From the NCBI GenBank assembly GCA_052327205.1, contig CM126202.1:118668001-118732000 (forward strand): a DNA stretch of 64,000 nt, written 5' to 3'. The notes below the pieces were generated by a model. It was given only the letters and a program-made list of their open reading frames with translations. It had not been told where the DNA came from and ran no database searches. Each line of letters begins with the position of its first letter. Positions within the stretch are counted from its first letter, which is position 1. Shown here one piece after another: positions 2,304-63,698 of this stretch. This DNA is from Somniosus microcephalus. Taxonomy: Eukaryota. The translations under genes and the position numbers were made by a program.

Positions 2304-5047
2304 GGGCTCCATTTTGCCAAGCACGAGGAGGCGGGTTTGGAGGCATGCGAGGTGGTTAAATCGCAAAAAATGGTGAAGCGGGCCTGATCCTGCCTCCATC
2401 CCGCCTTCGAGCAATTTTCCCAAGTGTGTGTTTTCTGAACCCCTTTCCATCCCGCCTCCAAGAGGCGGGATAAGCCCTTAAGTCCCTTAACAGCCCCTTA
2501 ATTGCCTCTATTATCCCATTTTGAGAGGCCTTTCCAATTTTTAAACATTTCCCCCATCCTACACGCCTCCTCTGGAACACGCCAGTTAATCCTGGTGGCC
2601 TCACAATTGGATTGTTTACTAACAGCTGCAGCTTCACCATTACAAAGGAGTTTTCACCAATGATCATTTGCAGGTGGCAGAACTTTGTTGTCTCAGGTCT
2701 GGGCGAACTTTTAACATACCTACTCATTGTTGTGGAAGTTTGGAGCCTGACACCCATCTCCAGTGTGACCTCCTGGGAAACCCCACTCCCCAACTTGACT
2801 GAGCGCTTCCTCAACTGAGGCATATATCAGAAGCATGACGACCTCCTGGGAAACCCCACTCCCCAACTTGACTGAGCGCTTCCTCAACTGAGGCATATAT
2901 CAGAAGCATGACGACCATTTAATTCCTTTCCTCCTGGACATCAGATTCGGACGAAGACCAGCCGCGGCAGCAGCAGAACCATGAACAATAGCAGCACTAA
3001 CAGCAGGAGCATCAACAGGAACGCCAAGCTGCTAGTCACCCATCTGAAGCTGCACAGGCCAGAAGGCGCCAGCGCGTGACCACATTGCTGCCCGGGATGC
3101 AAGGGATGCACTCATCCTGGCCAGATTTGGTGAGCCTGCACAATCAAACACTTTTGTCTCGCACCTTCTTACCAGGGCATCCACAATGGACAAGAACCTG
3201 TGGATTCCTATCACTCTGACCACCATACTGACAATTGCAAGGCACCCTAAGCCCTCAATGTGAGAGTCCCATTTGCGAAATGACACAGGCCACAACTTCA
3301 ACAGTTTGCCATCAAATCTGTTTATAATACAATGACAATGATGGCTGGTACAAATACAAAACATCACAGCACCCAAGTGACTACCCTTGTGACTACTTGT
3401 GCTTTATCTTCTTCTTACACGTGCTCCTACATGGTGCTTCCCCTGTGGCTTCAACAGATGTGGAGGCCCCTTGCTCACTTTCTTGCTGCTCCTGTCTCGA
3501 CAACTTTGGCAGCCGTCCTGTGGGGTGGCGAACATGTGCAGGATCGCCAACAGTCTGCTGCTCCTGCGGCTATGCAGGGACTAAGAATCCCATCTCAATT
3601 GGGTGGGGACTCTGGTGGGGCTCTGACCAAGGGCTCTGCAGTGGCATGGTCGTGTGAGTGCTTGGACAGGAGACCCGATTTCCTTGTTCTCTGCCACAAA
3701 CATCTCTCTCATGGGTCAGCCCCACTTCAGAGCTAGCAAGTGGCTTGACAGCACCTTGCTGCAATTCAGTGGGGCCATGAGGACCCATTTCTGCACTGGA
3801 AGTCCTACTCCAGAGGACTTCCATGAAGGTCTGGTTTCTATGCTCAATAGCTGACCATCGCTCCTCAAGAGATGTCACTCTAGTCTGAACAATTACCATG
3901 TTTCCCATACCCTGGCAACTAAGCTCCTCCATGGCCATAGCCATCCTCTCCTCTACCGTAGCCATCCTCTCCTCTATGGTAACCACGGAGTTAGCCATCC
4001 TTTCCACGGAGGTTGCCATCCTTTCCGCGGTGATGCGTTCATGCGCCAATGCCTCCACAAAGGCTCTGTCAATGTTTGCGATGGACTCCTCCATTCGCTC
4101 CACACTCACAGCAACCCTGGAGACAAAACCTGCCAGAGACTCCTGCACCTGTTCCTGGAGATCCAGCACCACTCTCCTTCTGGGTGGACCCAGAGGCACA
4201 GGGTCGACATGCAGCTGAGTCGAGTTGGCAGAGTCCTGCGCCCTCCGATGAGGACTCTCTACTGCTGTCCCTGCTGATGCTCACTTGTGAGCTGTGATAC
4301 ACCAAGTGACAACACGATTCTATCTCACGAAGGTCCCACCGAGGTGTGAGTGTCTGCGCTGGTGCTGGGTGCACTGAATTCTGCTGATGCTGTGCCCTCA
4401 GAGGTTATAGCTTCCTCTGAGGAGTCTGGAAGCTCAGGCTGTTCCTCCAGGACAGTGGAGACGGGGGCTTTCGATGGTCCTGTGGGGGAGTAAAGGAAAG
4501 AGTTAGAGATGTGAGGTCAAGGTTACATGCACATTCAATAGTGCAGATGATCATAAGTCAATCTGTTAGAGCATCAGATTCATTATCGGTGGCTCATGCA
4601 ATATCAATGAGAGATGCCAAACTATTCTGTCACCAGCTTGCTGTGATGTGCCCATCTGTCCCTCCCCCACTTGGGTATCGTCCTCACTTCCAGTGATTTC
4701 CAGGGCTGCCTCCTCCCAGGGGGTGAGCTGGGCTACTGAGGTGGCCCTCCTCCTGTCATGGCTCTTTCCCTCTTATTGTGAGCTCTCTTTTTCTGCAATG
4801 AGGGACACAAGTGGAGTTTGAGTGAGAATGAAGGAGTGAGTGTAGAGAATCCATAGCATTGATGACGTCATCGGAGGCGACTTTCTGTATGAAAAGACTC
4901 AATGGGTCAGGGGTTCCCACACACAGGAAATCAATTGCCCAATTAGGGGAAAATCCCACTTTTTCAACACTTCACTTAGGAGTCGGGGTCCTGACACGAT
5001 TTCCACCTGACACGTCCCAGCCCGCCCACACTGGCAAAATCCAGCCT
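2304..5047. mobile_element. Decayed PIF/Harbinger-like DNA transposon (Myb/SANT-like accessory gene remnant on - strand, transposase C-terminal remnant on +)
   Basis: Imperfect TIRs GGGCTCCATTTTGCCA (2304) / TGGCAAAATCCAGCCT (to 5047); - strand ORF 3570-4199 with coiled-coil ERMAT repeats; putative GT-AG intron 4480-4687 (-); + strand ARDARDALILARF near 3090-3128. Confidence 0.55.
2767..2916 (+). repeat. Perfect 73-bp tandem duplication
   Basis: GACCTCCTGGGAAACCCC...AGAAGCATGAC at 2767-2839 and 2840-2912; GACC microhomology at the junctions. Confidence 0.95.
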
Positions 5048-6799: not shown

Positions 6800-7060
6800 G
6801 GTTTCGGCATTGTGGGAGAGGCCGGTATTCATTGCGGGTTTGGGAGGTGTTGCCGAAGAAGCCTTGGCAAGTTGCTGCAGTGCATCCTGTAGATAATACA
6901 CACTACAACCACAGTACCCCAGTGATGGAGGGGTTGGATGTTTAGGCTAGTGGATGAGATGCCAATCTAGTGGACTGCTTTGTCCTAGATGGTGTCGCAC
7001 TTATTGAATGTTGTTGCAGTTGCACCCATCCAGCCAAATGGAGAGCTTTCTCTCACACAT
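6800..7060 (-). mobile_element. Old 3' fragment of the LINE family seen at 31901-35161
   Basis: Reverse complement resembles 34660-34870 (e.g. TACAGGATGCACTGCAGCAACTTGCCAAGGCTTCTTCGGCA). Confidence 0.75.
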
Positions 7061-8584: not shown

Positions 8585-9205
8585 GCAGGCTAGTGGTTAT
8601 GGTACTGGATGTTCAAATCCCCCCCATGGCATGATATAAAATAAATGAATAAATCAGGTAATTTGTGGGCTAGCACTAGCAAGAATAACCATGAAAACTA
8701 CTGCAACAATACAAAAGCAAAATATTGCAGATGCTGGAAATCTGAAATAAAAAAAGAAAATGCTGGAAATACTCAGCAGGTCAGGCAGCATCTGTGGAGA
8801 GAGAAACAGAGTTCATGTTTCAGGTCGATAACCCTTCGTCAGAACTGGAAAAAGCTGGAGATCGAACAGGTTTTTAAGCAAGTACAGGGGCAGGGAAAGT
8901 GGGATGGGGAGGAAAGAACAAAAGGGGAGGTCTGTGATAGGATGGAAGGCAGGAGAGATTAAGAGACATTAAGAGATGGTGCAAGGCAAAAGGAGATGGT
9001 AATGGGTAATGAATGGTAAAGGATGGTAATGAAAACTACTGGATTGTTCTAAGAACCCTATTGGTTCATGAACGTCCTTCACTAATGCCTACATTCTCAC
9101 ACTACATTCCATTCTCACACTACATCATTGACTCAATGTCCTCCAGCAACAAGGGATGGGTAATATATTCTGCCTTGCCAGTGTTTTACCCACACCCTAA
9201 GAACA
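8585..9205 (+). mobile_element. Degenerate tRNA-headed Deu-domain SINE (SacSINE1-like), interrupted at 8704-9028
   Basis: A/B-box-like TAGTGGTTA..GTTCAAATCCC; CCATGAAAACTACTGGATTGT..ACCC..GGTTCA core matches 32030-32080; tail GGGATGGGTAATATATTCTGCCTTGCCAG matches 35098-35130. Confidence 0.7.
8704..9028. mobile_element. Penelope-like/retroposon terminal fragment inserted in the SINE
   Basis: GCAGATGCTGGAAATCTGAAATAAAA..AATGCTGGAAATACTCAGCAGGTCAGGCAGCATCTGTGGAGAGAGAAACAGAG (recalled abundant shark repeat); 13-bp TSD ATGAAAACTACTG at 8691-8703 and 9029-9041. Confidence 0.7.
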
Positions 9206-10749
9206 AATTAACTTACTTATGTTCAGATCAGCCCATGCCCAGTGAGTAAAATGTTACCTAGTATCAATGCATGTCAAGTTAGTTGGTACAGTATCACTTC
9301 TATTAAATTACACCGTTCAAGCATGGGAGCCTACAGTATCTACCATGACACCCTGCTGCTATTTTTTTGTTTAATGAAATCAGAAATGGTAATCAATCAG
9401 TACGCCCTTGAAATTACACTGTGGGATAAGGAATTTCAGGCCAATCTATCCCAGCGCCTAACTTTAAGGCCCACATTTATATGCATTATTACACAGCAGA
9501 AAGTACTCTGGAGAGTATTGGAAGGCAGCAGCACATCTCAGAGTGATGAATCAATTAATTTCAATCTCTCCACATTTGTTAACTGCCTTGTGACTACAAT
9601 GCCTATTTATGGAGGGCAGGTGAACGATGATTTTAGATCGATTAATTAAATCTGGGAATGCCACATTCTCAGGGGAATTATCTTTCAGTCAGTCAGCAAA
9701 GCTGGGCCAAGCCCGACCCTGAGCAGTGAGCCAGACTGGGGCCATGTGCTCCCTGCTCGGGGAGAATGTCCGACACCGGCCTTCGCCTCCAGGCCCGGGG
9801 AGCTATTGGCGGGAATCGCCGTCTTCTACCAATTTCACCCAAGTCGTCTCCATTTAGTAATAGTACGACATTACACAAAACAGCATATTGTTTCAGTTAG
9901 TGTGACTGTTATTCGAAAAAGAGAATGATTTCACTTTTGTCCCCCATGTGAAAGTATCTCAGTGTCTTCTCTGTCAATCTCCCGCTGAACTGTTGCTACA
10001 ACACGTTTCCATTTGGCCAGCCCTGCTTGGCCATTGAGGCCGCGAGTCTGTGACTGGGAGATATTCTTCGACAGATATTAAAGGCTGTTGTCCGTGTTTA
10101 CTGGCAGTAAGATTTGTTTAAGTTACTTTAATGAAATGTCACAAAAACTACGAACCTGGTTAGAGACCGACCGCACAAAACTACATGGCCAAATCAAGGA
10201 AATCCGAAATGTTTAATAGTCTGGGTTAGTCCAATTAGAACAGACGCATTTAATTAGGGTTAAAATGAGCTTTTTTCCTATTGTCTTCCATCTCTGTCTT
10301 CTCGTCTCGTAGAAAAATGCAATTAAAGTAGCTCAAAACATACTCTGACATCTGTGGAGTGTTTTCAGCTTCGAGGATGAAAAGAGTCCTCTATAACTAA
10401 AATAATCGTTTAAAAATTATTAACGAGCAATAATGGTTTCCCTTTTTTAATCAAATAACATCTTCTCTAAAAACGAATCAGACCCAGCGTCGCCTTGTCC
10501 TCACACTATGCGTTTCTTGTGATGAACAAAATTGCCATCATTGATCGCCGCTCAGCATGGAATGAGGTTGTAAGGGGACAGCAATCTGCTGTGGGTACTG
10601 TACAACCATGCGCAACTAACAGTACAAAAATCAAGAATGCCTGGTCTGCAATTAGCCCTGTATTTCTTGGCTCTGGTACATAGGTAGAAACCAATCTATG
10701 TCTTGTTTAACAAAAATGAGCTACTACAAATTGCACGTAGATGTATTAT

Positions 10750-31077: not shown

Positions 31078-31615
31078 AAGAACTTAAGAAATAGGAGCAG
31101 GAGTATGCCATACAGCCCCTCGAGCCTCCTTCTCCATTCAATAAGATCATGGCTGATCATCGACCTCAACTCCACTTTCCAGCCCGATCTCCATATCCCT
31201 TGATTCCCCTAGAGTCCAAAAATCTATCTATCTCAGCATTGAATATATTCAAAGACTCAGCATCCACAGCCCTCTGGGGCAGAAAATCCCAAAGATTCAC
31301 AATCCTCTGAGTGAAGAAATTCCTCCTCATCTCGGCCTACTCCTTATCCTGAGACTATGCCCCCTAGTTCTAGACACACTAGCCAGGGGAAACAACCTCT
31401 CAGCATCTACCCTGTCAATCCCCTTCAGAATCTTGTATGTTTCCATGAGATTACTTCTCTTCTAACTAAACTCCAGAGAGCATAGGCCCATTCTACACAA
31501 TCTCTCATCATAGGACAGCCCTCTCATCCCAGGAATCAATCTAGTGAATCTTCGTTGCACCACATCCAAGTCAAATATATCCATCCTTAGATAAGGAGAC
31601 CAAAACTGTGCACAC
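31078..31615 (-). mobile_element. CR1-type LINE 3' end
   Basis: AAGAAATAGGAGCAGGAGTATGCCATACAGCCCCTCGAGCC tail; the upstream part encodes the ORF2 C-terminus (CAQFWSPYLRMDI..) on - strand. Confidence 0.88.
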
Positions 31616-31724
31616 TAATTAACGTGAAAATGACTCTGGCCACTCGACTTTGGCTTTGGGTAGGTGGCTCGGGCGCCTCACCGTTATTGCGCCCATTTTG
31701 TCCCGAGCGAAAACTCTGCCCTGT

Positions 31725-34700
31725 GGCTCATGTCATCAGCATACATATGGAAGCTGACACCATGTTTGTAGATTCTGTCATAAAAGGGCTGCAGGTAGAT
31801 GAATAAGAGGAAGGACTCCTAAGGTGACAGTGTAGGGATGGGAAGGGAACCCGTTGATAAAGATGCTCTGGTTATAATTGGATAGATAAGAGTGGAACCA
31901 AGCATAGTGGTTACGTTACTGGACTAGTAATCCAGAGATCTGGAGACATCAGTTCAAATCCCATCACGGCAGCTGGGGAATTTAAATTCAGTTAATTAAA
32001 TAAATAAATAGCTAGTATCAGTAATGGTGACCATGAAACTACAGGATTGTCATAAAAACCCATCTAGTTCACTAATGTCCTTTAGGGAAGGAAATCTGCC
32101 GTCCTTACCTGATCTGGCCTATATATGACTCCAGAACCATAGCAATGTGGTTGACTCTTAACTGCCCTCAGAAATGGCCTAGCAAGCCACTCAGTTGTAA
32201 AAAACCTCTACATAAAACAAGAAGAATAAAACCGGACGGACCACCCGGCAGCGACCTCAACTATGGATACGACAATGGCACACCCAGCCCAGTCGACCCT
32301 GCAAAGTCCTCCTCACTAACATCTGGGGACTTGTGCCAAGATTGGGAGAGCTGTCCCACAAACTAGTCAAGCAACAGCCTGACATAGTCATACTCACAGA
32401 ATCATATCTTTCAGCAATGTCCCAAACTCCTCCATCACCATCCCTAGGTATGTCCTGTCCCACCGCAGGACAAACCCACCAGAGGTGGTGGCACAGTGGC
32501 ATACAGTCGGGAAGGATTGGCCCAGGGAGTCCTCAACACTGACTCCAGACCCCATTAAGTCTCATGGCTTCAGATCAAGCATGGGCAAGGAAACCTCCTG
32601 TTGATTACCACCTACCGCCATCCCGCAGCTGATGAATCAGTACCCCTCCATGCTGAACACCACTTGGAAGAAGCACTGAGAGTAGCAAGGGCACAGAATG
32701 TACTCTGGGTGGGGGACTTCAATGTCCATCACCAAGAGTGGCTCGGTAGCACCACTACTGATCGAGCTGTCGTGAGTCCTGAAGGATATAGCTGCCAGTC
32801 TGGGCCTGCGACAGGTGGTAAGAGAACCAACACGAGGGAAAAACCTAATTGACCTCGTCCTCACCAACCTACCTGTCGCAGATGTATTTGTCCATGACAA
32901 CATTGGTAGGAGTGACCACTGCACAGTCATTGTGGATACGAAGTCCCATCTTCACACTGAGGACAACCTCCATCATGTTGTGTGGCACTACCACCGTGCT
33001 AAATGGGATAGATTCAGAACAGATCTAGCAGTTCAAAACTAGGCATCCAGAAGGTACTGTGGGCCATCAGCAGAAGCAGAATTGTATCCCACCACAATCT
33101 GTAACCTCATGGCCCGGCATGTCCCTCACTCTATCATTACCGTCAAGCCAGGGGACCAACCCTGGTTCAATAAGGAGTGTAGAAGAGCATGCTAGGAGCA
33201 GCACCAGGCGTACTTAAAAGTGCGGTGCCAATCTGCGGAAGCTACAACACAGGACTAAATGCATGCTAAAAAGCAGAAGCAGCATGCTGTAGACAGAGCT
33301 AAGCGATCCCGCAATCAACAGATCAGATCAAAGCTCTGCAGTCCTGCCACAACCAGTCATGAACGGTGGTGGACCACTAAACAACTAACAGGAGGCTCTA
33401 TGAATATCCCCATCCTCAATGATGGTGGAGCCCAGCACGTGAGTGCAAAAGACAAAGCTAAAGCGTTTGCAACCATCTTCAGCCAAAAGTGCTGAGTGGA
33501 TGATTCATATCGGCCTCCTCCTGAGGTCCCCACCACCACAGAAGCCAGTCTTCAGCCAATTCGATTCACTCCACGTGATATCAAGAAATGGCAGAGCGCA
33601 CTAGATATAGCAAGGGCTGTGGGCTCTGACAACATCCCGGCTGTCGTGCTAAAACCTTGTGTTCCAGATCTAGCCATGTCTCTAGCCAAGCTGTTCCAGT
33701 ACAGCTATAACACTGTCATCTATCCTACAATGTGGAAAACTACCCAGTTATGTCCTGTCCACAAAAAGCAGGACAAATCAAATCCGGCCAATTACCGCCC
33801 CATCAGCCTATTCTCAATCATCAGCAAAGTGATGGAAGGTGTCGTCGACAGTGCTATCAAGCAACACTTACTCACCAATAACCTGCTCACCAATGCTCAG
33901 TTTGGGTTCCACCAGGACCACTTGGCTCCAGACCTCATTACAGCCTTGGACCAAACATGGACAAAAGAGCTGAATTCCAGAGGTGAGGTGAGAGTGACTG
34001 CCCTTGACATCAAAGCAGCATTTGACCGAGTGTGGCATCAAGGAGCCCTAGTAAAACTGAAGTCAATGGGAATTAGGGGGAAAACTCTCCACTGGCTGGA
34101 GTCATACCTAACACAAAGGAAGATGGTTGTGGTGCTTGGAGGTCAATCATCACAGCCCCAGGACACCGCTGCAGGAATTCCTCAGGGCAGTGTCCTAGGC
34201 CCAACCATCTTCAGCTGCTTCATCAATGTCCTTCCCACCATCATAAGGTCAGAAGTGGGGATGTTCGCTGATGACTGCACAGTGTTCAGTGCCATTCACA
34301 ACGCCTCAGATAATGAAGCAGTCCATGCCCGTATGCAGCAAGACCTGGACGACATTCAGGCTTGGGCTGATAAGTGGCAGGTAACATTCACGCCACACAA
34401 GTGCCAGGCAATGACTCTCCAACAAGCGAGCGTCTAACCACCACCCCTTGACATTCAACGGCATTACCATCGCCAAATCCCCCACCATCAACATCCTGGG
34501 GTTACCATTGACCAGAAACTTAACTGGACCAGCCACATAAATACTGTGGTAACAAGAGCAGATCAGAGGCTGGGTATTCTGCGGTGAGTTTTTCAACTCC
34601 TGACTCCCCAAAGCCTTTCCACCATCTACAAGGCACAAGCCAGGAGTGTGATGGAATACACTTGCCTGGATGAGTGCAGCTCCAACAACACTCAAGAAGT

Positions 34701-35760
34701 TCAACACCATCCAACACAATGCAGCCCGCTTGATTGGCACCCCATCCACCACCTTAAACATTCACTCCCTCCACCACCGGCGTACATTGGCTACAGTGTG
34801 TACCATCTACAAGATGCACTGCAGCAACTCGCCAAGGCTTCTTCAGCAGCTCCTCCCAAACCCGCAACTTCTACCACCTAGAAGGACAAGGACAGCAGGC
34901 GCATGGGAAGAGCATCACCTGCAAGCTCCCCTCCAAGTCACAAACCATCCTGACTTGGAAGTATATCGCTGTTCCTTCATTATCGCTGGGCCAAAATTCT
35001 GGAACTCCCTCCCTAACAGCACTGTGGGAGTACCTTCACCACACGGACTGCAGCAGTTCAAGAAGGCAACTCACCACCATCTTCTCAAGTGCGACTAGAG
35101 ATGGGCAATAAATGCTGGCCTTGCCAGCGACGCCTACATCCCATGACGAATATTTTAAAAATGGCAGTTCCGTGGAACTGGACAACATGAGAAGCTTTGC
35201 AGGAGAATGGCGTGGTCAATCATTTCAAGAGGTCAAGGAGGATTAATGCAATATGGTTGGAGTCATTGAGATATGCATTCACTGGTACGGGGGAAGGAAG
35301 CCGGATTGGAGGGATTGAAACAGAGAGTTGTGTGAGAGATGGCCATGGAACTGGGAGGCAAAAGCACAGAATGGGTGATAGTTGGTGAGAAGAGAGGGGT
35401 CAAGAGTAGGTTTTTAAGGAGGAAGTAATGATGGTGGTTTTCAAAGGGAGGAGGACAATACAGTGCTCAAGGACAGCGAACTATTTACAATGCCAGCTAA
35501 CTTGGGGCAAGCAAGGGATATGGAATGGTAAGGAGTTTAATGGGAATGTTGTCAACAAACCAGGGGGAAGATAAGCTTGGAGAGGACAGGGTGTGATGGG
35601 GGAAGAAACTAGAGGGAGATAGGAGTTTATGGCTAGAGTGGAAGGGGGCTGGCATAGGGGGCACAAGGAAGGGGCTTGGGTGGTGGAACAGTGAGGGCAC
35701 TTGAACAGATGACCTCGATCTTAATGTAGTAAGAGCATCCTGGCCAACTTGTTCCAAAGT
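31725..35760 (-). mobile_element. Old L2-type LINE fragment (31725-31900 and 35162-35760), split by the SINE-headed LINE
   Basis: Reverse strand VSFHMYADD RT motif at ~31733-31758; purine-rich L2-like sequence resumes after 35161. Confidence 0.6.
31901..35161 (+). mobile_element. Near full-length, disrupted CR1/Jockey-group LINE (APE endonuclease + RT) with a tRNA/Deu-SINE-like 5' head and no ORF1
   Basis: Head 31901-32197 with TAGTGGTTA and B-box GTTCAAATCCC (31952); EN motifs PDIVILTESYL, VGDFNVHH, IDLVLTN, SDH; RT NYRPISL, LDIKAAFDRVWH, PQGSVLGP, FADD; tail GATGGGCAATAAATGCTGGCCTTGCCAGCGACGCCTACATCCC; several stops and frameshifts. Confidence 0.9.
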
Positions 35761-36088: not shown

Positions 36089-36442
36089 TGTGGCGGAGCC
36101 ACTGAATGACTCTGGGCAACTGTATATAATTCCCTTTAACGATGTTCTAACACCAGCCTAAGCCGGTACCATTGTGTTAGACATTACTTCGTTTTGTATA
36201 TAGTGTTTGTATGCACGGGGCGTGGCCCCTTTAAGAGCGCGGGAAAACGCGGGCAAGCGCGATGACGTCATGTCGCAAACCACGTGACTGCCCAGGCAGT
36301 CCTCGTGGAAGCTCCATCTTGTTAAGACCTGTTTCGTGGTTCTCCTGTATCGATCTCATCAAACTGTTTGAACTCGTTTAGTTTTACATTTGATCTCCTG
36401 AGTCGACCTCAGTTATTAGTTAGGAATTTGTCAATTCCTACA
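36089..36442 (+). repeat. 5' LTR (354 bp)
   Basis: TGTGGCGG...CCTACA, near-identical to 40286-40641. Confidence 0.97.
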
Positions 36443-36489
36443 TTGGTGACCCCGTCTTTTGTGAACATTTTTCACAAAAAGGACACAGC

Positions 36490-40285: not shown

Positions 40286-40641
40286 TGTGGCGGAGCCACT
40301 GAATGACTCTGGGCAACTGTATATAATTCCCTTTAACGATGTTCTAACACCAGCCTAAGCCTGTACCATTGTGTTAGACATTACTTCGTTTTGTATATAG
40401 TGTTTGTATGCACGGGGCGTGGCCCCTTTAAGAGCGTGGGAAAACGCGATGATGTCATGTCGCAAACCACGTGACTGCCCAGGCAGTCCTCGTGGAAGCT
40501 CCATCTTGTTAAGACCTGTTTCGTGGTTCTCCTGTATCGATCTCATCAAACTGAACTCGTTTAGTTTTACATTAAAGACCTGTTTGATTTGATCTCCTGA
40601 GTCGACCTCAGTTATTAGTTAGGAATTCGTCAATTCCTACA
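40286..40641 (+). repeat. 3' LTR (356 bp)
   Basis: Matches the 5' LTR apart from about 4 substitutions and 3 indels. Confidence 0.97.
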
Positions 40642-41507
40642 CTGGTAAAGCAGTCTTGTAAAGAGATCTGAACATAATGAAAAACTTGGCAGAAAGTTTT
40701 GTCACACAGACTGCAGTTCAGTTTTAAATTGGTTGGAGTTCATAATTTATAATCTGAAGTAACTGGTGATGTTCCACCACACCTGTATTGAACAGCACGA
40801 GATAATCAAATCTCAGTGCATAGGGGAGCCTCAGACTCTTGTAACTGAGTAAAGTGTGTATAATCTGGGCACATTAAAAGTGTGTCCAATTCCTAGGAAC
40901 TGCCACTTAGTTAAGTATTGCTAAGTTCCTATGAAGTAGTATCAAATGTGAATGTTTTTTGGCAGTGGTATTAAGAATCTGTAAACTGCGACATGGCTTG
41001 AGTAAATGTAAGTAAACCAAAATGTGTGTGGTGGAACTATTAAACAGCTGTGCAATGTAACATTTACATCAATTTAAAACTTTTTTTGTTGAATTGCTTT
41101 AGAAAAAAGATTGATTTGAAATGATCCTGTATTCTGAGAAGTGTAAATTCTACTATGCTTCCACATAAGTTGCTGCTACATCCCATTTGAGATCTGGAAG
41201 AGTGTAATATCCCCAGGTACATGATATGGGAATGTTTTACTCTCCAGATAGCTGAACATCAGTATATGTAACCTTTAAATTGTATTATTTAAATTTTCAG
41301 TTTCCTACTTTTCATGATGCTCTATTGAAACTTACAGCTTTCATAAAATAAAAGTGCACTGTGCTCAAATTACTTTCTGTCTTCCATTTTTAAAGGTAAT
41401 TTAAATTTTATTGTGGTTCCCCATTATATACATGATGAAGACAACTAGTTGGCATAATTTTGAATATACTATATCAGACTTCCTCTGTGGATAAATACAA
41501 AATTAAT

Positions 41508-45391: not shown

Positions 45392-46080
45392 TGTGGCGGT
45401 TCCACCGGGTGTCCCTTACTATGTATATATACATAATTCCCTTTAACTTACCTTTGTATTACATAACTTACCTGTTTGGGCCGTTGCCCCTTTAACTTAC
45501 CTGTTTGGGCCATTGCCCCTTTAAGAACGCGACATAACGTACTGACGTCACGTCGTGCGTCGCATAACTCACCAGATGCGAGCCGACCCAGCGCAGCCTT
45601 CCACTTCCTCGACGGTCGCCGGCACAACTCGGCCTCCCGCTCCTGCGGTGGCCACCGGCCCGGTTCGGCCTCCCGCGCCCGCGATGGCCGCCGGCCCGGT
45701 TCGGCCGCCCGCTCTCGCGTCTTCGGCCGCAACGGCCAGCCACAGTTACGCGCCGATGCAACGACGCAGGTCACGTGCCCGCCCAAGCGTGGGTAAACGC
45801 GCTAACGTCACGACGCGGTCACGTGACCACACGAGCGCGGGAAAACACGGCCGAGCGTGATGGCATCATCACGCTCTCCACAGGACTGCGGAGTCAGTCC
45901 TCGTGGCGTCCCCGCTGGGGAAAGACCTACTTCACAGTGCTCCTGCATCCAGCCGCCTTACCTGCTGTATTTCGTCTGTTCTTGTAAATAAACAACTTCT
46001 AGATTGTTCTCCTGAAGTCGAACTCGATTATTTAGTAGTCATTCGTCCGATACCTACCTAGGTGAACACGAACTGCTATG
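45392..46080 (+). mobile_element. Solo LTR related to the Gypsy LTR at 36089
   Basis: Starts TGTGGCGG; shares in order GCCCCTTTAAGA, GCGCGGGAAAAC, AGTCCTCGTGG, AAGACCT, TCTCCTGA-GTCGA; GTGC on both flanks (45388-45391, 46081-46084); the 3' end reads TATG rather than TACA. Confidence 0.7.
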
Positions 46081-61800: not shown

Positions 61801-63698
61801 GTTAGAGAAAAATACTTCTGGTACATTTCCACAATTGTCATGAAACTATGGTAATCCTTTGTAGTTTGAAGGTGGTCAGTGTTTAATGGCATTTATAATG
61901 GTGCCTTGCTTGCCAGAACTATAAACACTGGGACTGAAATTCCTTGTGAAATCATTTAATGCTTTAAAGCTGTATGTATATGAGGCTGCAGTCACATTTA
62001 TCGCTACATAGATAGCTTAAAATGAGTTCTGCTGTTAAAATTATAATCTAGTAGTATCTTTTTAGACACTCTAAAGTGAACTTCCTTCTCCGTGTATCTG
62101 GAAAAGAATTATTTTTCTAAAATAATCTGACTGCTAAATAAAGCATCCTGGATCAAGTCCAGTCAAGGAGCTCAATTAACTGACACTGATCCTAACTAAA
62201 AAAACACATTGTAAATGTGTGCAAGAACTGCATGTGATAATAAATACATTTTTTGTTTCGAGTAGCCGTTTTCCAAAGCCAAAAGCATCAAAAGGTAGGT
62301 ACTACAGGCTAGCTGATATTGGTGAAATCAAGGAAGATCTTATTCATTTCTAATATTGCTTACTGCAGGCATAACGTGCTTCAGCTTAACATGGAGACAA
62401 TTTATGAGGACTGCTAACCTCTGCAGTGCAGATAAACTGTACTATTTCAGAAGAGTAATTTTGCTTTTCGTAACCTGTGTCTCCACTCATTTTTCATGCT
62501 GCTTGACCTGTAACCTCCCCAGCGGAAGTGAAGGGTTGTAATTTTTCTTGATACCTGGGATAATAATTCCAGCAACTAGATAGAACCATAAAAACAGCAC
62601 TTTGAAGCTAGGAGTGACAATTTGGTTACATTAATAGTTATTTCTAAATTGAGAGGGTGAGAAAATGTTTGGAGAACTGTATATTTTTTAAACACTTACA
62701 TGAAAGGAAATGTCAAAGTAGATTGTACAGAAGCAAATGCTCACTCTTCCAACTCCTTTGATGATATATGTTTGCGTTCCCAAAGCACCTGTTCAAATCA
62801 ATTTGATTGGCTTGCCAAGCAGAAGTTTAGCATTGAATGTAACTTTAAACAGAAAAAGACCTCCTCATTTTTTCATTTTGGTTTGACAGTTTTTTCCTAT
62901 GATTTAAAAAATAATAATTCCAGTTGATTTATGTGTTCAAAAAGGGAGTTGGCTTTGACCTTTTCCTTAAGACAGTGTGAGATAATTATCAAAGCGTCCA
63001 CGTCTTTTGAGGCCCAGTATCTGTAAAGCAATCCAGCCGCTGAGGGAGAATAAATGGTTTCCTGATTAGCTCTTGCAAATGCAGTCTGCTTTCAGTCTTG
63101 CATGTCAACGGTTTTTTCTTTTCTTTTTTCCTGTTATTTTGCTTGGAATGTTTGGCATAGTTTTCTCCTTCTGAATTGTTGGTCGAGTAACAAATCTATG
63201 TTTGATCAGCTTTTGGTGTCACAGTTGACAAACAGTGTGGTAGTGTATATTAAGGTAATCAGATCTAAGTTGGTAATTTTGTGGAACTTGCACAGGCCTG
63301 TAAAGAAGACTGGATGAAGCACTATTAAATACATGTATACATATTTATTTATATACACTATAGTATGAACAGGTTTCATTGGAAAACATTACAGTGTATT
63401 GAAGAGGGGGAAAAAATCCTTGACAAAGTTGTGGCAGATTGAGTAAGTGCAGTGAATGGCCTACATAGCCCCCCTTTCCCAATTCTTTAACCTTTGCAGA
63501 CCCCTGCCTTGGTTGTATGACAAATAGAATTGCACTCTGAAGAAAAGCTGTTGCAGCAGTTTAGAACTGGGTATTGAAAAGGACAACAAAGGGAGGATCT
63601 AGCAGAGTTGCAAGCAGGCAGAAGTAAGGTGGGAACTGTGGATGACAGGCCTCATCATCTGCTCATCACCTCTGGCTATGCAGTACACCCATGCTCTC

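Follow-up and report, generated by a model that had tools for sequence, protein, structure and literature searches.

Sequence anatomy of an elasmobranch Zenon LINE with a tRNA-like head and an AUG-less ORF2 in Somniosus microcephalus

Short interspersed elements (SINEs) are generally taken to consist of a head derived from a small RNA, a body of unknown origin and a tail borrowed from a long interspersed element (LINE), and RNA polymerase III (Pol III) is generally taken to make non-coding RNA. The element described here, a LINE that begins with a tRNA-like head, lies in a window of 64,000 nucleotides (nt), i.e. the whole stretch of DNA that was analysed (Somniosus microcephalus, assembly GCA_052327205.1, contig CM126202.1, positions 118,668,001 to 118,732,000 of the forward strand). 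Judged by its sequence, it is a dead copy of an abundant, high-copy Zenon LINE of sharks and rays with only one open reading frame (ORF), the frame termed ORF2. Its features suggest that the active masters of this family were, on balance likely, transcribed by Pol III and that their ORF2 was translated from a non-AUG start set by a structured leader.

The closest described systems are the published Zenon elements of elasmobranchs. In five elasmobranch species, a total of seven Zenon consensus sequences (SquAca_Zenon-1/2/3 and the Zenon-1 of CarCar, ScyCan, RhiTyp and HypSab) start with the same head, as judged by eye over the first 400 nt (PMC13343379), and over this length SquAca_Zenon-1 matches the majority sequence of the window family almost base for base, again by eye. 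Common to both are a single ORF with an apurinic/apyrimidinic (APE) endonuclease and a reverse transcriptase (RT), the lack of ORF1, a poly(A) tail and a length of about 3.3 kb. In the window family the poly(A) tail is present and the ORF is seen as an open core of 937 codons in the majority sequence of 21 copies, the best protein homologues of which are 35-44% identical and mostly unnamed. Since all Zenon elements lack ORF1 and carry poly(A) tails (PMC13343379), a missing ORF1 is ordinary here: the initial annotation was right about its absence, as none was found among 40 copies ascertained through their RT, but not in regarding this absence as unusual. The head itself goes unremarked in the same paper, where the word 'tRNA' is absent from the main text and the accessible part of the supplement and 'polymerase III' from the main text, and its accessible parts do not mention the AUG-less ORF2, the avoidance of T-runs or derived SINEs. 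Two further papers (PMC11481361 and PMC7245038) treat Zenon or CR1, as far as they were accessible, only as tail donors. The family as such is not new; a description of its promoter and translation anatomy seems to be lacking in the literature searched, which was largely without subscription papers, Repbase and Dfam.

By eye, the Zenon consensus sequences of hagfish and coelacanth show no tRNA-type head within their first 400 nt (PMC13343379), and Persaeus, a deleted derivative of a lepidopteran Zenon, has neither tRNA homology nor a Pol III promoter (PMC6740152). Because neither the former starts nor the latter derivative shows such a head, it would most simply be a gain made by a Zenon LINE within the elasmobranchs, and in this form the earlier idea of a retroposon that captured a SINE-type promoter holds, as the first of two successive steps. 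Two other systems resemble parts of the element. The T+ SINEs (B2, Dip, Ves) combine a tRNA head, AATAAA, a variably shortened T terminator and an A tail (PMC8466645), but they are short and non-coding, whereas the Zenon element comprises 3.3 kb and has its own endonuclease and RT under purifying selection. RTE-1_DAn and elements related to it are LINEs that contain a tRNA-like sequence and match many SINE2 elements (PMC5786205); however, they belong to the RTE clade, and no further literature on their tRNA-like sequence was found.

The 5' end of the window copy (Table 1) is 9 nt short of that of the family, which was placed by eye 9 nt above position 31901 in about 30 of 39 heads. As first annotated, the head (31901-32200) runs into the APE endonuclease, the RT and a 3' tail that ends at 35161, without an intervening tail or target site duplication (TSD), and the Pfam families Exo_endo_phos_2 (E 3.7e-6) and RVT_1 (E 2.3e-36) are matched downstream of it. 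The ORF had been called complete; in fact it bears 7 premature stops and about 6 frameshifts, so this copy is dead. The copy indeed interrupts one L2 fragment, since the joined flanks span the joint without offset in 17 alignments to 29 L2 loci. No TSD flanks it, nor was a convincing one seen in most of the 31 family copies checked.

The junction of head and ORF is a property of the family and not of this locus. A junction query (32100-32450) yielded 5771 first-look candidates in the same genome, and among the 40 that were scored all 39 non-self matches span the junction at 89-91% identity. Twenty-nine non-self loci were obtained with the head alone as query; 15 of them lead into the ORF, 9 directly into the 3' tail, and 5 hold only the head. 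The RT protein as query, which is blind to the head, gave 127 matches. We examined 40 of them, namely the 30 that ranked highest and 10 chosen for their long frames. Thirty of these 40 copies are cut inside the ORF or ambiguous, and the 10 that clearly extend above the endonuclease all enter the same leader, 8 of them reaching the head. A normal ORF1, 5' untranslated region (UTR) or any other alternative 5' end was not found among the 40, and their upstream flanks share no other 5' sequence. It is near certain that head, leader, ORF2 and tail together make up the full-length form of the family. End and junction counts were deduplicated by flank, and rows L001-L030 were dropped as duplicates of L031-L059; two pairs on different contigs with identical flanks, i.e. 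segmental or assembly duplicates, were retained, L054/L069 in the 21-copy majority and L090/L092 among the 39 heads. Head, junction and the short joined form are also present in contigs of four runs (type guessed) from other organisms, in which start, strand and level are not readable. A 24-nt body pattern had no match in metagenome contigs, 80 distant homologous loci from metagenomes showed no match to the head, and the 57 of them with a long ORF have no pair of A and B boxes upstream of it. An older Zenon layer (L290-L309) is 68-78% identical to the young majority and 5'-truncated throughout, and the window itself holds a second Zenon-family piece (6832-7040, minus strand, 209 bp) with 81% identity to the main copy.

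The A and B boxes of the head, already noticed in the initial annotation, stand at a workable spacing, and the family begins just upstream of the A box, at a distance of about 8 nt. In 39 copies the A pattern occurs 24 times, the B pattern 27 times and both 16 times; in 9 of these 16 the starts of the two boxes are separated by 65 nt. The window head has lost about 21 nt between the boxes and its A box is damaged; not one instance of the paired pattern was found in the window. Neither ARAGORN nor Rfam called a tRNA in this head, the copy being too worn; from the 39 better copies and their majority ARAGORN obtained 22 matches at the 90% threshold versus none in 39 shuffles, and 1 match (tRNA-Thr) among the 40 sequences at its default threshold. 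In sequence or fold the head is thus weakly tRNA-like. The B box appears intact in the published shark Zenon consensus sequences and degenerate in the ray one (by eye, PMC13343379). The host tRNA genes retrieved belong mostly to one tandem array at G000:C24:42.90-43.16 Mb (L201, L203-L229), in which dozens of nearly identical genes follow each other about every 1.59 kb.

The part of the head behind the boxes had been described as a Deu-SINE-like core, and here our analysis disagrees. The genome has a Deu-type SINE of its own, which we take to be SacSINE1. Seventeen of its copies, pulled by a motif from a bivalve Deu alignment (PMC4824008), served as reference. The body of the young head gave P-values of 0.02-0.39 against it over four scorings and an nhmmer E of 0.05, the body of an older SINE family in the same genome gave P-values of 0.56-0.90, and the Zenon tail did not match that of the Deu-type SINE (P 0.68). 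There may be a very remote link of the body to the Deu domain, which these comparisons do not support. SacSINE1 and the DeuSINEs likewise include a tRNA-headed shark SINE with a similar B-box region (PMC5499810, PMC4824008); however, they combine a Deu body with a tail that is L2-type in SacSINE1 (PMC5499810), and the Deu-type SINE of this genome is a separate family, neither body nor tail of which convincingly matches Zenon. Three short motifs of the UCON3 and Meta domains gave no match in the supplements searched.

Several observations point to Pol III as the polymerase of the family. The initial annotation had proposed to rebuild the consensus, and the rebuilt 3.3-kb majority, with its 937-codon core open, does not contain a single run of four T (T4) on the sense strand, next to 17 A4, 11 C4 and 9 G4. 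T4 is also absent from all four subfamily majorities; the sense strand is free of it except at the 3' end. Zero T4 is unexpected under a base shuffle (P 0.014). Moreover, the ORF2 contains 5 TTT runs versus 11.2 expected under synonymous permutation (P 0.004), with no such depletion of A, C or G triplets, and 1.9% phenylalanine versus 3.2 +/- 1.0% in 74 homologues. For control, a CR1 majority of the same genome has 6 T4 in 1313 nt (its source, at 31100-31620 on the minus strand of the window, is the 3' end of a high-copy CR1-type LINE with 9426 candidates at about 91% identity), and none of the 57 distant homologous ORFs is free of T4. At the 3' end of the family, AATAAA stands about 45 nt before the A tail, its frequency being biased by how ends were chosen, and the A's are preceded by a graded run of one to ten T. 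At least four T precede the A tail at 16 of 53 LINE ends versus 1 of 53 flank windows (P 8e-5) and at 4 of 19 unclassed ends. The polyadenylated Pol III transcripts of T+ SINEs end in the same pattern of AATAAA, variable T-run and A tail (PMC8466645). Taken together, these signs make transcription of the family by Pol III quite probable.

There are, however, also findings that speak against it. The lack of T4 is weak evidence when taken alone, because it is not significant under nulls that keep composition (dinucleotide shuffle P 0.19, synonymous-codon permutation P 0.11-0.12). C runs are also somewhat depleted (dinucleotide shuffle P 0.02), 1 of the 57 homologues scores even lower on TTT, and these homologues are T-richer and only 28-46% identical. 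Runs of at least four T are not significant at SINE ends (4/25 versus 1, P 0.35), 23 of the 53 LINE ends have a single T only, and T-runs of this kind also lengthen after insertion (PMC8466645). Start site, cap, polymerase and protein are predicted from the DNA sequence.

For these reasons, transcription by Pol II, as in other LINEs, with the promoter either inside the element or upstream of it, deserves the most serious consideration among the alternatives, although we regard it as rather unlikely. The tRNA-derived boxes would then be kept for another role or for SINE partners, and the RNA would be capped, with ribosomes reaching ORF2 through readthrough or reinitiation. Besides the lack of significance for T4, AATAAA and poly(A) fit Pol II equally well, LINE promoters have been treated as atypical Pol II (or Pol III) promoters (PMC3894237), and Zenon elements outside the elasmobranchs do without the tRNA head. 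Left unexplained by a Pol II promoter are the T-specific depletion of TTT, the run of T in front of the A tail, the fixed position of the 5' end (about 8 nt above the A box) and the B boxes that have stayed intact, by eye, in the consensus sequences of sharks, if not in that of the ray.

The second unusual aspect is the way in which ORF2 begins. The linker of about 100 bp that the initial annotation placed before the endonuclease does not exist as such, being the AUG-less basic N-terminus of ORF2. The first in-frame methionine is residue 252 of the 937-codon core (counted from the endonuclease start), and no in-frame AUG precedes it behind the in-frame stop. At least 80 of 99 copies have this stop, a TAA, and in 23 of 55 it is the first to be encountered on going upstream from the endonuclease; the others are interrupted by CpG stops or indels, the recurrent premature stops falling at CGA codons. 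In the distant homologues, a methionine at or before the endonuclease motif was found in 16 of 18. The ORF2 is under purifying selection in the head-bearing lineages: of the variants that occur in 15% or more of the copies, 47 are synonymous and 29 other, compared with 492 and 1612 for private variants (P 3e-12), which means that the masters needed the protein. The frame that opens at AUG 32145 is dispensable: 41 of 55 copies have it out of phase with the endonuclease (14 in phase), and it ends at a stop in codon 20 in a subfamily of 16 copies, 9 of which fall into one 13-tip clade (support 0.93). A 1014-codon frame from the same AUG was considered and rejected as an alignment artefact of the A-rich linker, in frame in 14 of 55 copies only.

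Between the boxes and ORF2 lies a leader that hardly varies among five species (compared by eye; the two pairs counted differ at 3 to 8 positions in about 150 nt). It shows 9 differences from the majority of the older SINE, and among these the predicted stems have 2 compensatory changes, 1 pair that is tolerated and 1 that is broken (P 0.004). Between the loop of the hairpin just before the start region and an in-frame codon downstream, 3-4 pairs could form, and these are kept in 5 species by eye. This arrangement is reminiscent of the dicistrovirus intergenic region (IGR, type 6) internal ribosome entry site (IRES), which also has a structured leader of similar length with a stem-loop just before an AUG-less frame (PMC12221177). 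However, the Zenon leader has no sequence or Rfam match to it, the possible pseudoknot is limited to the 3-4 pairs, and equivalents of PKII and PKIII were not identified. An IGR-like IRES starting ORF2 is in our opinion conceivable but rather doubtful.

We favour the combination of Pol III transcription and a leader-directed non-AUG start, which could work as follows. TFIIIC would bind the A and B boxes of the head, and Pol III would read through the 3.3 kb up to the T-run behind AATAAA. The RNA may then be polyadenylated in the manner of the T+ SINEs and, being uncapped, would recruit ribosomes through the leader, with the start just behind the hairpin. More speculatively, the hairpin loop might pair with the in-frame codon about 20 nt downstream, similar to pseudoknot I of the dicistrovirus IRES. 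Some properties of the leader do not fit this proposal well. Its folding energy is ordinary, no more stable than that of shuffles (z -0.3); the covariation is confined to the 5' stems, which the non-coding SINE keeps as well, with none for the 3' hairpin or the pseudoknot; and Rfam, applied to the window copy in its worn state, reported no IRES family at E<=1, pseudoknots not being searched separately. Furthermore, AUG 32174 lies in the frame of ORF2 in a good context, for which reason readthrough offers an alternative route of initiation.

It has to be considered, then, that a Pol III RNA is translated from AUG 32174 with readthrough of the stop, or that ribosomes leave the upstream AUG frame through a -1 shift, which we judge to be improbable. 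Its mini-frame is present in all seven published consensus starts (by eye), a single stop separates it from ORF2 in three other species, and the linker lengths keep the frame, with 34 of 55 copies in one phase. Yet the bounding TAA of this genome forms a second in-frame stop, so that two readthroughs would be needed in most copies, and lineages that have it still kept ORF2 under purifying selection. As to the shift, the upstream frame would have to be open, whereas it is closed in the subfamily mentioned above.

The abundance of short elements with the same ends bears on the origin of the whole structure. Young ones are 86-96% identical to the LINE majority, their heads ending at 296-344 and their tails starting at 3181-3241. 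Of the partner LINE they hold no more than its two ends, 5' and 3' (SIDE-type), and some retain N-terminal or C-terminal sequence of ORF2. Since head and tail are joined at many different points, these SINE-like elements arose, as judged from their joints, by repeated internal deletion of the Zenon LINE. The initial annotation had suggested such a parent for the SINE, which holds as the second of the two steps, with the addition that the event happened several times. The short element at 8585-9205, in which the same head and tail had been seen, does have a related head and a Zenon-type tail but is not of the same family: it belongs to an older sister family whose copies are about 20% diverged from their own majority and share a single junction, located before the hairpin. 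None of 20 old LINE copies reaches the head, all being cut before it, and a search for old copies that include a 5' end returned young ones. The older SINE may have been the donor of the head or may itself have been cut from an older LINE. Comparable short elements made of the two ends of a LINE are Persaeus (PMC6740152) and the bipartite RTE/Vingi derivatives (PMC5786205); the shark derivative looks like a complete tRNA SINE because its parent LINE already carries the head.

These short elements also leave little room for a SINE-first view, in which the long form would be a chimera of SINE and LINE that another master, equipped with an ordinary 5' UTR or ORF1, mobilised in trans. The older SINE family does predate the LINE copies, which are diverged by 4-7%, and as all 20 old LINE copies are truncated before the head, their 5' end may have been another one. 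However, no other 5' end occurs among the RT-ascertained copies, ORF2 is under purifying selection in lineages that bear the head, and the young SINEs have many junctions, some with terminal ORF2 sequence; for the young family the idea is already largely refuted, and we consider it very unlikely overall. Chance adjacency or a one-off template switch at the window locus is refuted by the recurrence of the junction in 39/39 scored non-self matches and in the published Zenon consensus starts.

If the favoured explanation is true, a long Pol III transcript that codes for protein would occur naturally in a vertebrate. A LINE bearing a tRNA promoter could give rise to SINEs in one step, their body being the leader of the LINE itself. 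This would be a direct route from LINE to SINE in which head, body and tail are acquired together. How the ORF2 proteins of LINEs start is a standing question, and IGR-type IRESs in LINEs have been raised as an open possibility (PMC3894237); the AUG-less ORF2 makes it testable with a 330-nt reporter. A leader that works cap-independently on RNA made by Pol III would, besides, be useful as a tool. The most far-reaching version, an autonomous vertebrate LINE acting as a protein-coding Pol III gene with a tRNA promoter, a terminator-free 3.3-kb body, a 3' end of the T+ SINE type, a factor-light dicistrovirus-like AUG-less IRES and one-step SINE production, is a tentative and rather improbable conjunction.

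Table 1. Features of the Zenon copy, its insertion site and the older SINE in the window (positions counted from the first nucleotide of the window)
Feature	Position	Strand	Remarks
Older head-plus-tail SINE, 5' half	8585..8712	+	Zenon-head-related; score 150, shuffle maximum 93.5
Older SINE, 3' half (body, then Zenon-type tail)	9020..9212	+	score 230.5, shuffle maximum 108.5
Older L2 fragment, left part interrupted by Zenon copy	31720..31900	-	
Zenon LINE copy (elasmobranch; family about 3.3 kb)	31901..35161	+	93.6% identity to majority of 21 long copies; dead
tRNA-like head	31901..31975	+	A and B boxes
A box	31900-31910	+	first base lost at junction
B box	31952-31961	+	intact
Structured leader	32054..32135	+	long stem 32063-32067/32131-32135, inner hairpin 32088-32106 (predicted); not Deu
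Upstream AUG frame	32145..32366	+	dispensable
Hairpin with 7-nt loop, just before ORF2 start region	32169..32194	+	predicted; absent from older SINE
AUG-codon-stop mini-frame (two codons) in hairpin, ORF2 frame	32174-32182	+	
In-frame TAA bounding ORF2 upstream	32198..32200	+	
ORF2	32201..35095	+	about 34 basic AUG-less residues, APE endonuclease from 32297, RT about 33766-34416; broken in window copy
First in-frame Met of ORF2	33049	+	past endonuclease
3' tail	35096..35161	+	AATAAA 35107-35112, T4 35153-35156, A5 35157-35161
Same L2 fragment, right part	35162..35480	-	contiguous with left part; no TSD

Some further features of the window may be mentioned. The older SINE is split at 8712-9020 by an unrelated repeat of about 300 bp, which has 47 BLAST matches among the loci examined and may resemble a Penelope-type terminal repeat. 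A weak SNORD14 match at 63577-63674 on the minus strand (E 0.89, far under the gathering score) is probably due to chance. Positions 2767-2912 are a perfect tandem duplication of 73 nt. Finally, downstream of the Zenon copy a unit is duplicated about 4.2 kb apart with 92-99% identity, and a third copy is more diverged (36089-36458, 40286-40657 and 45507-45964).

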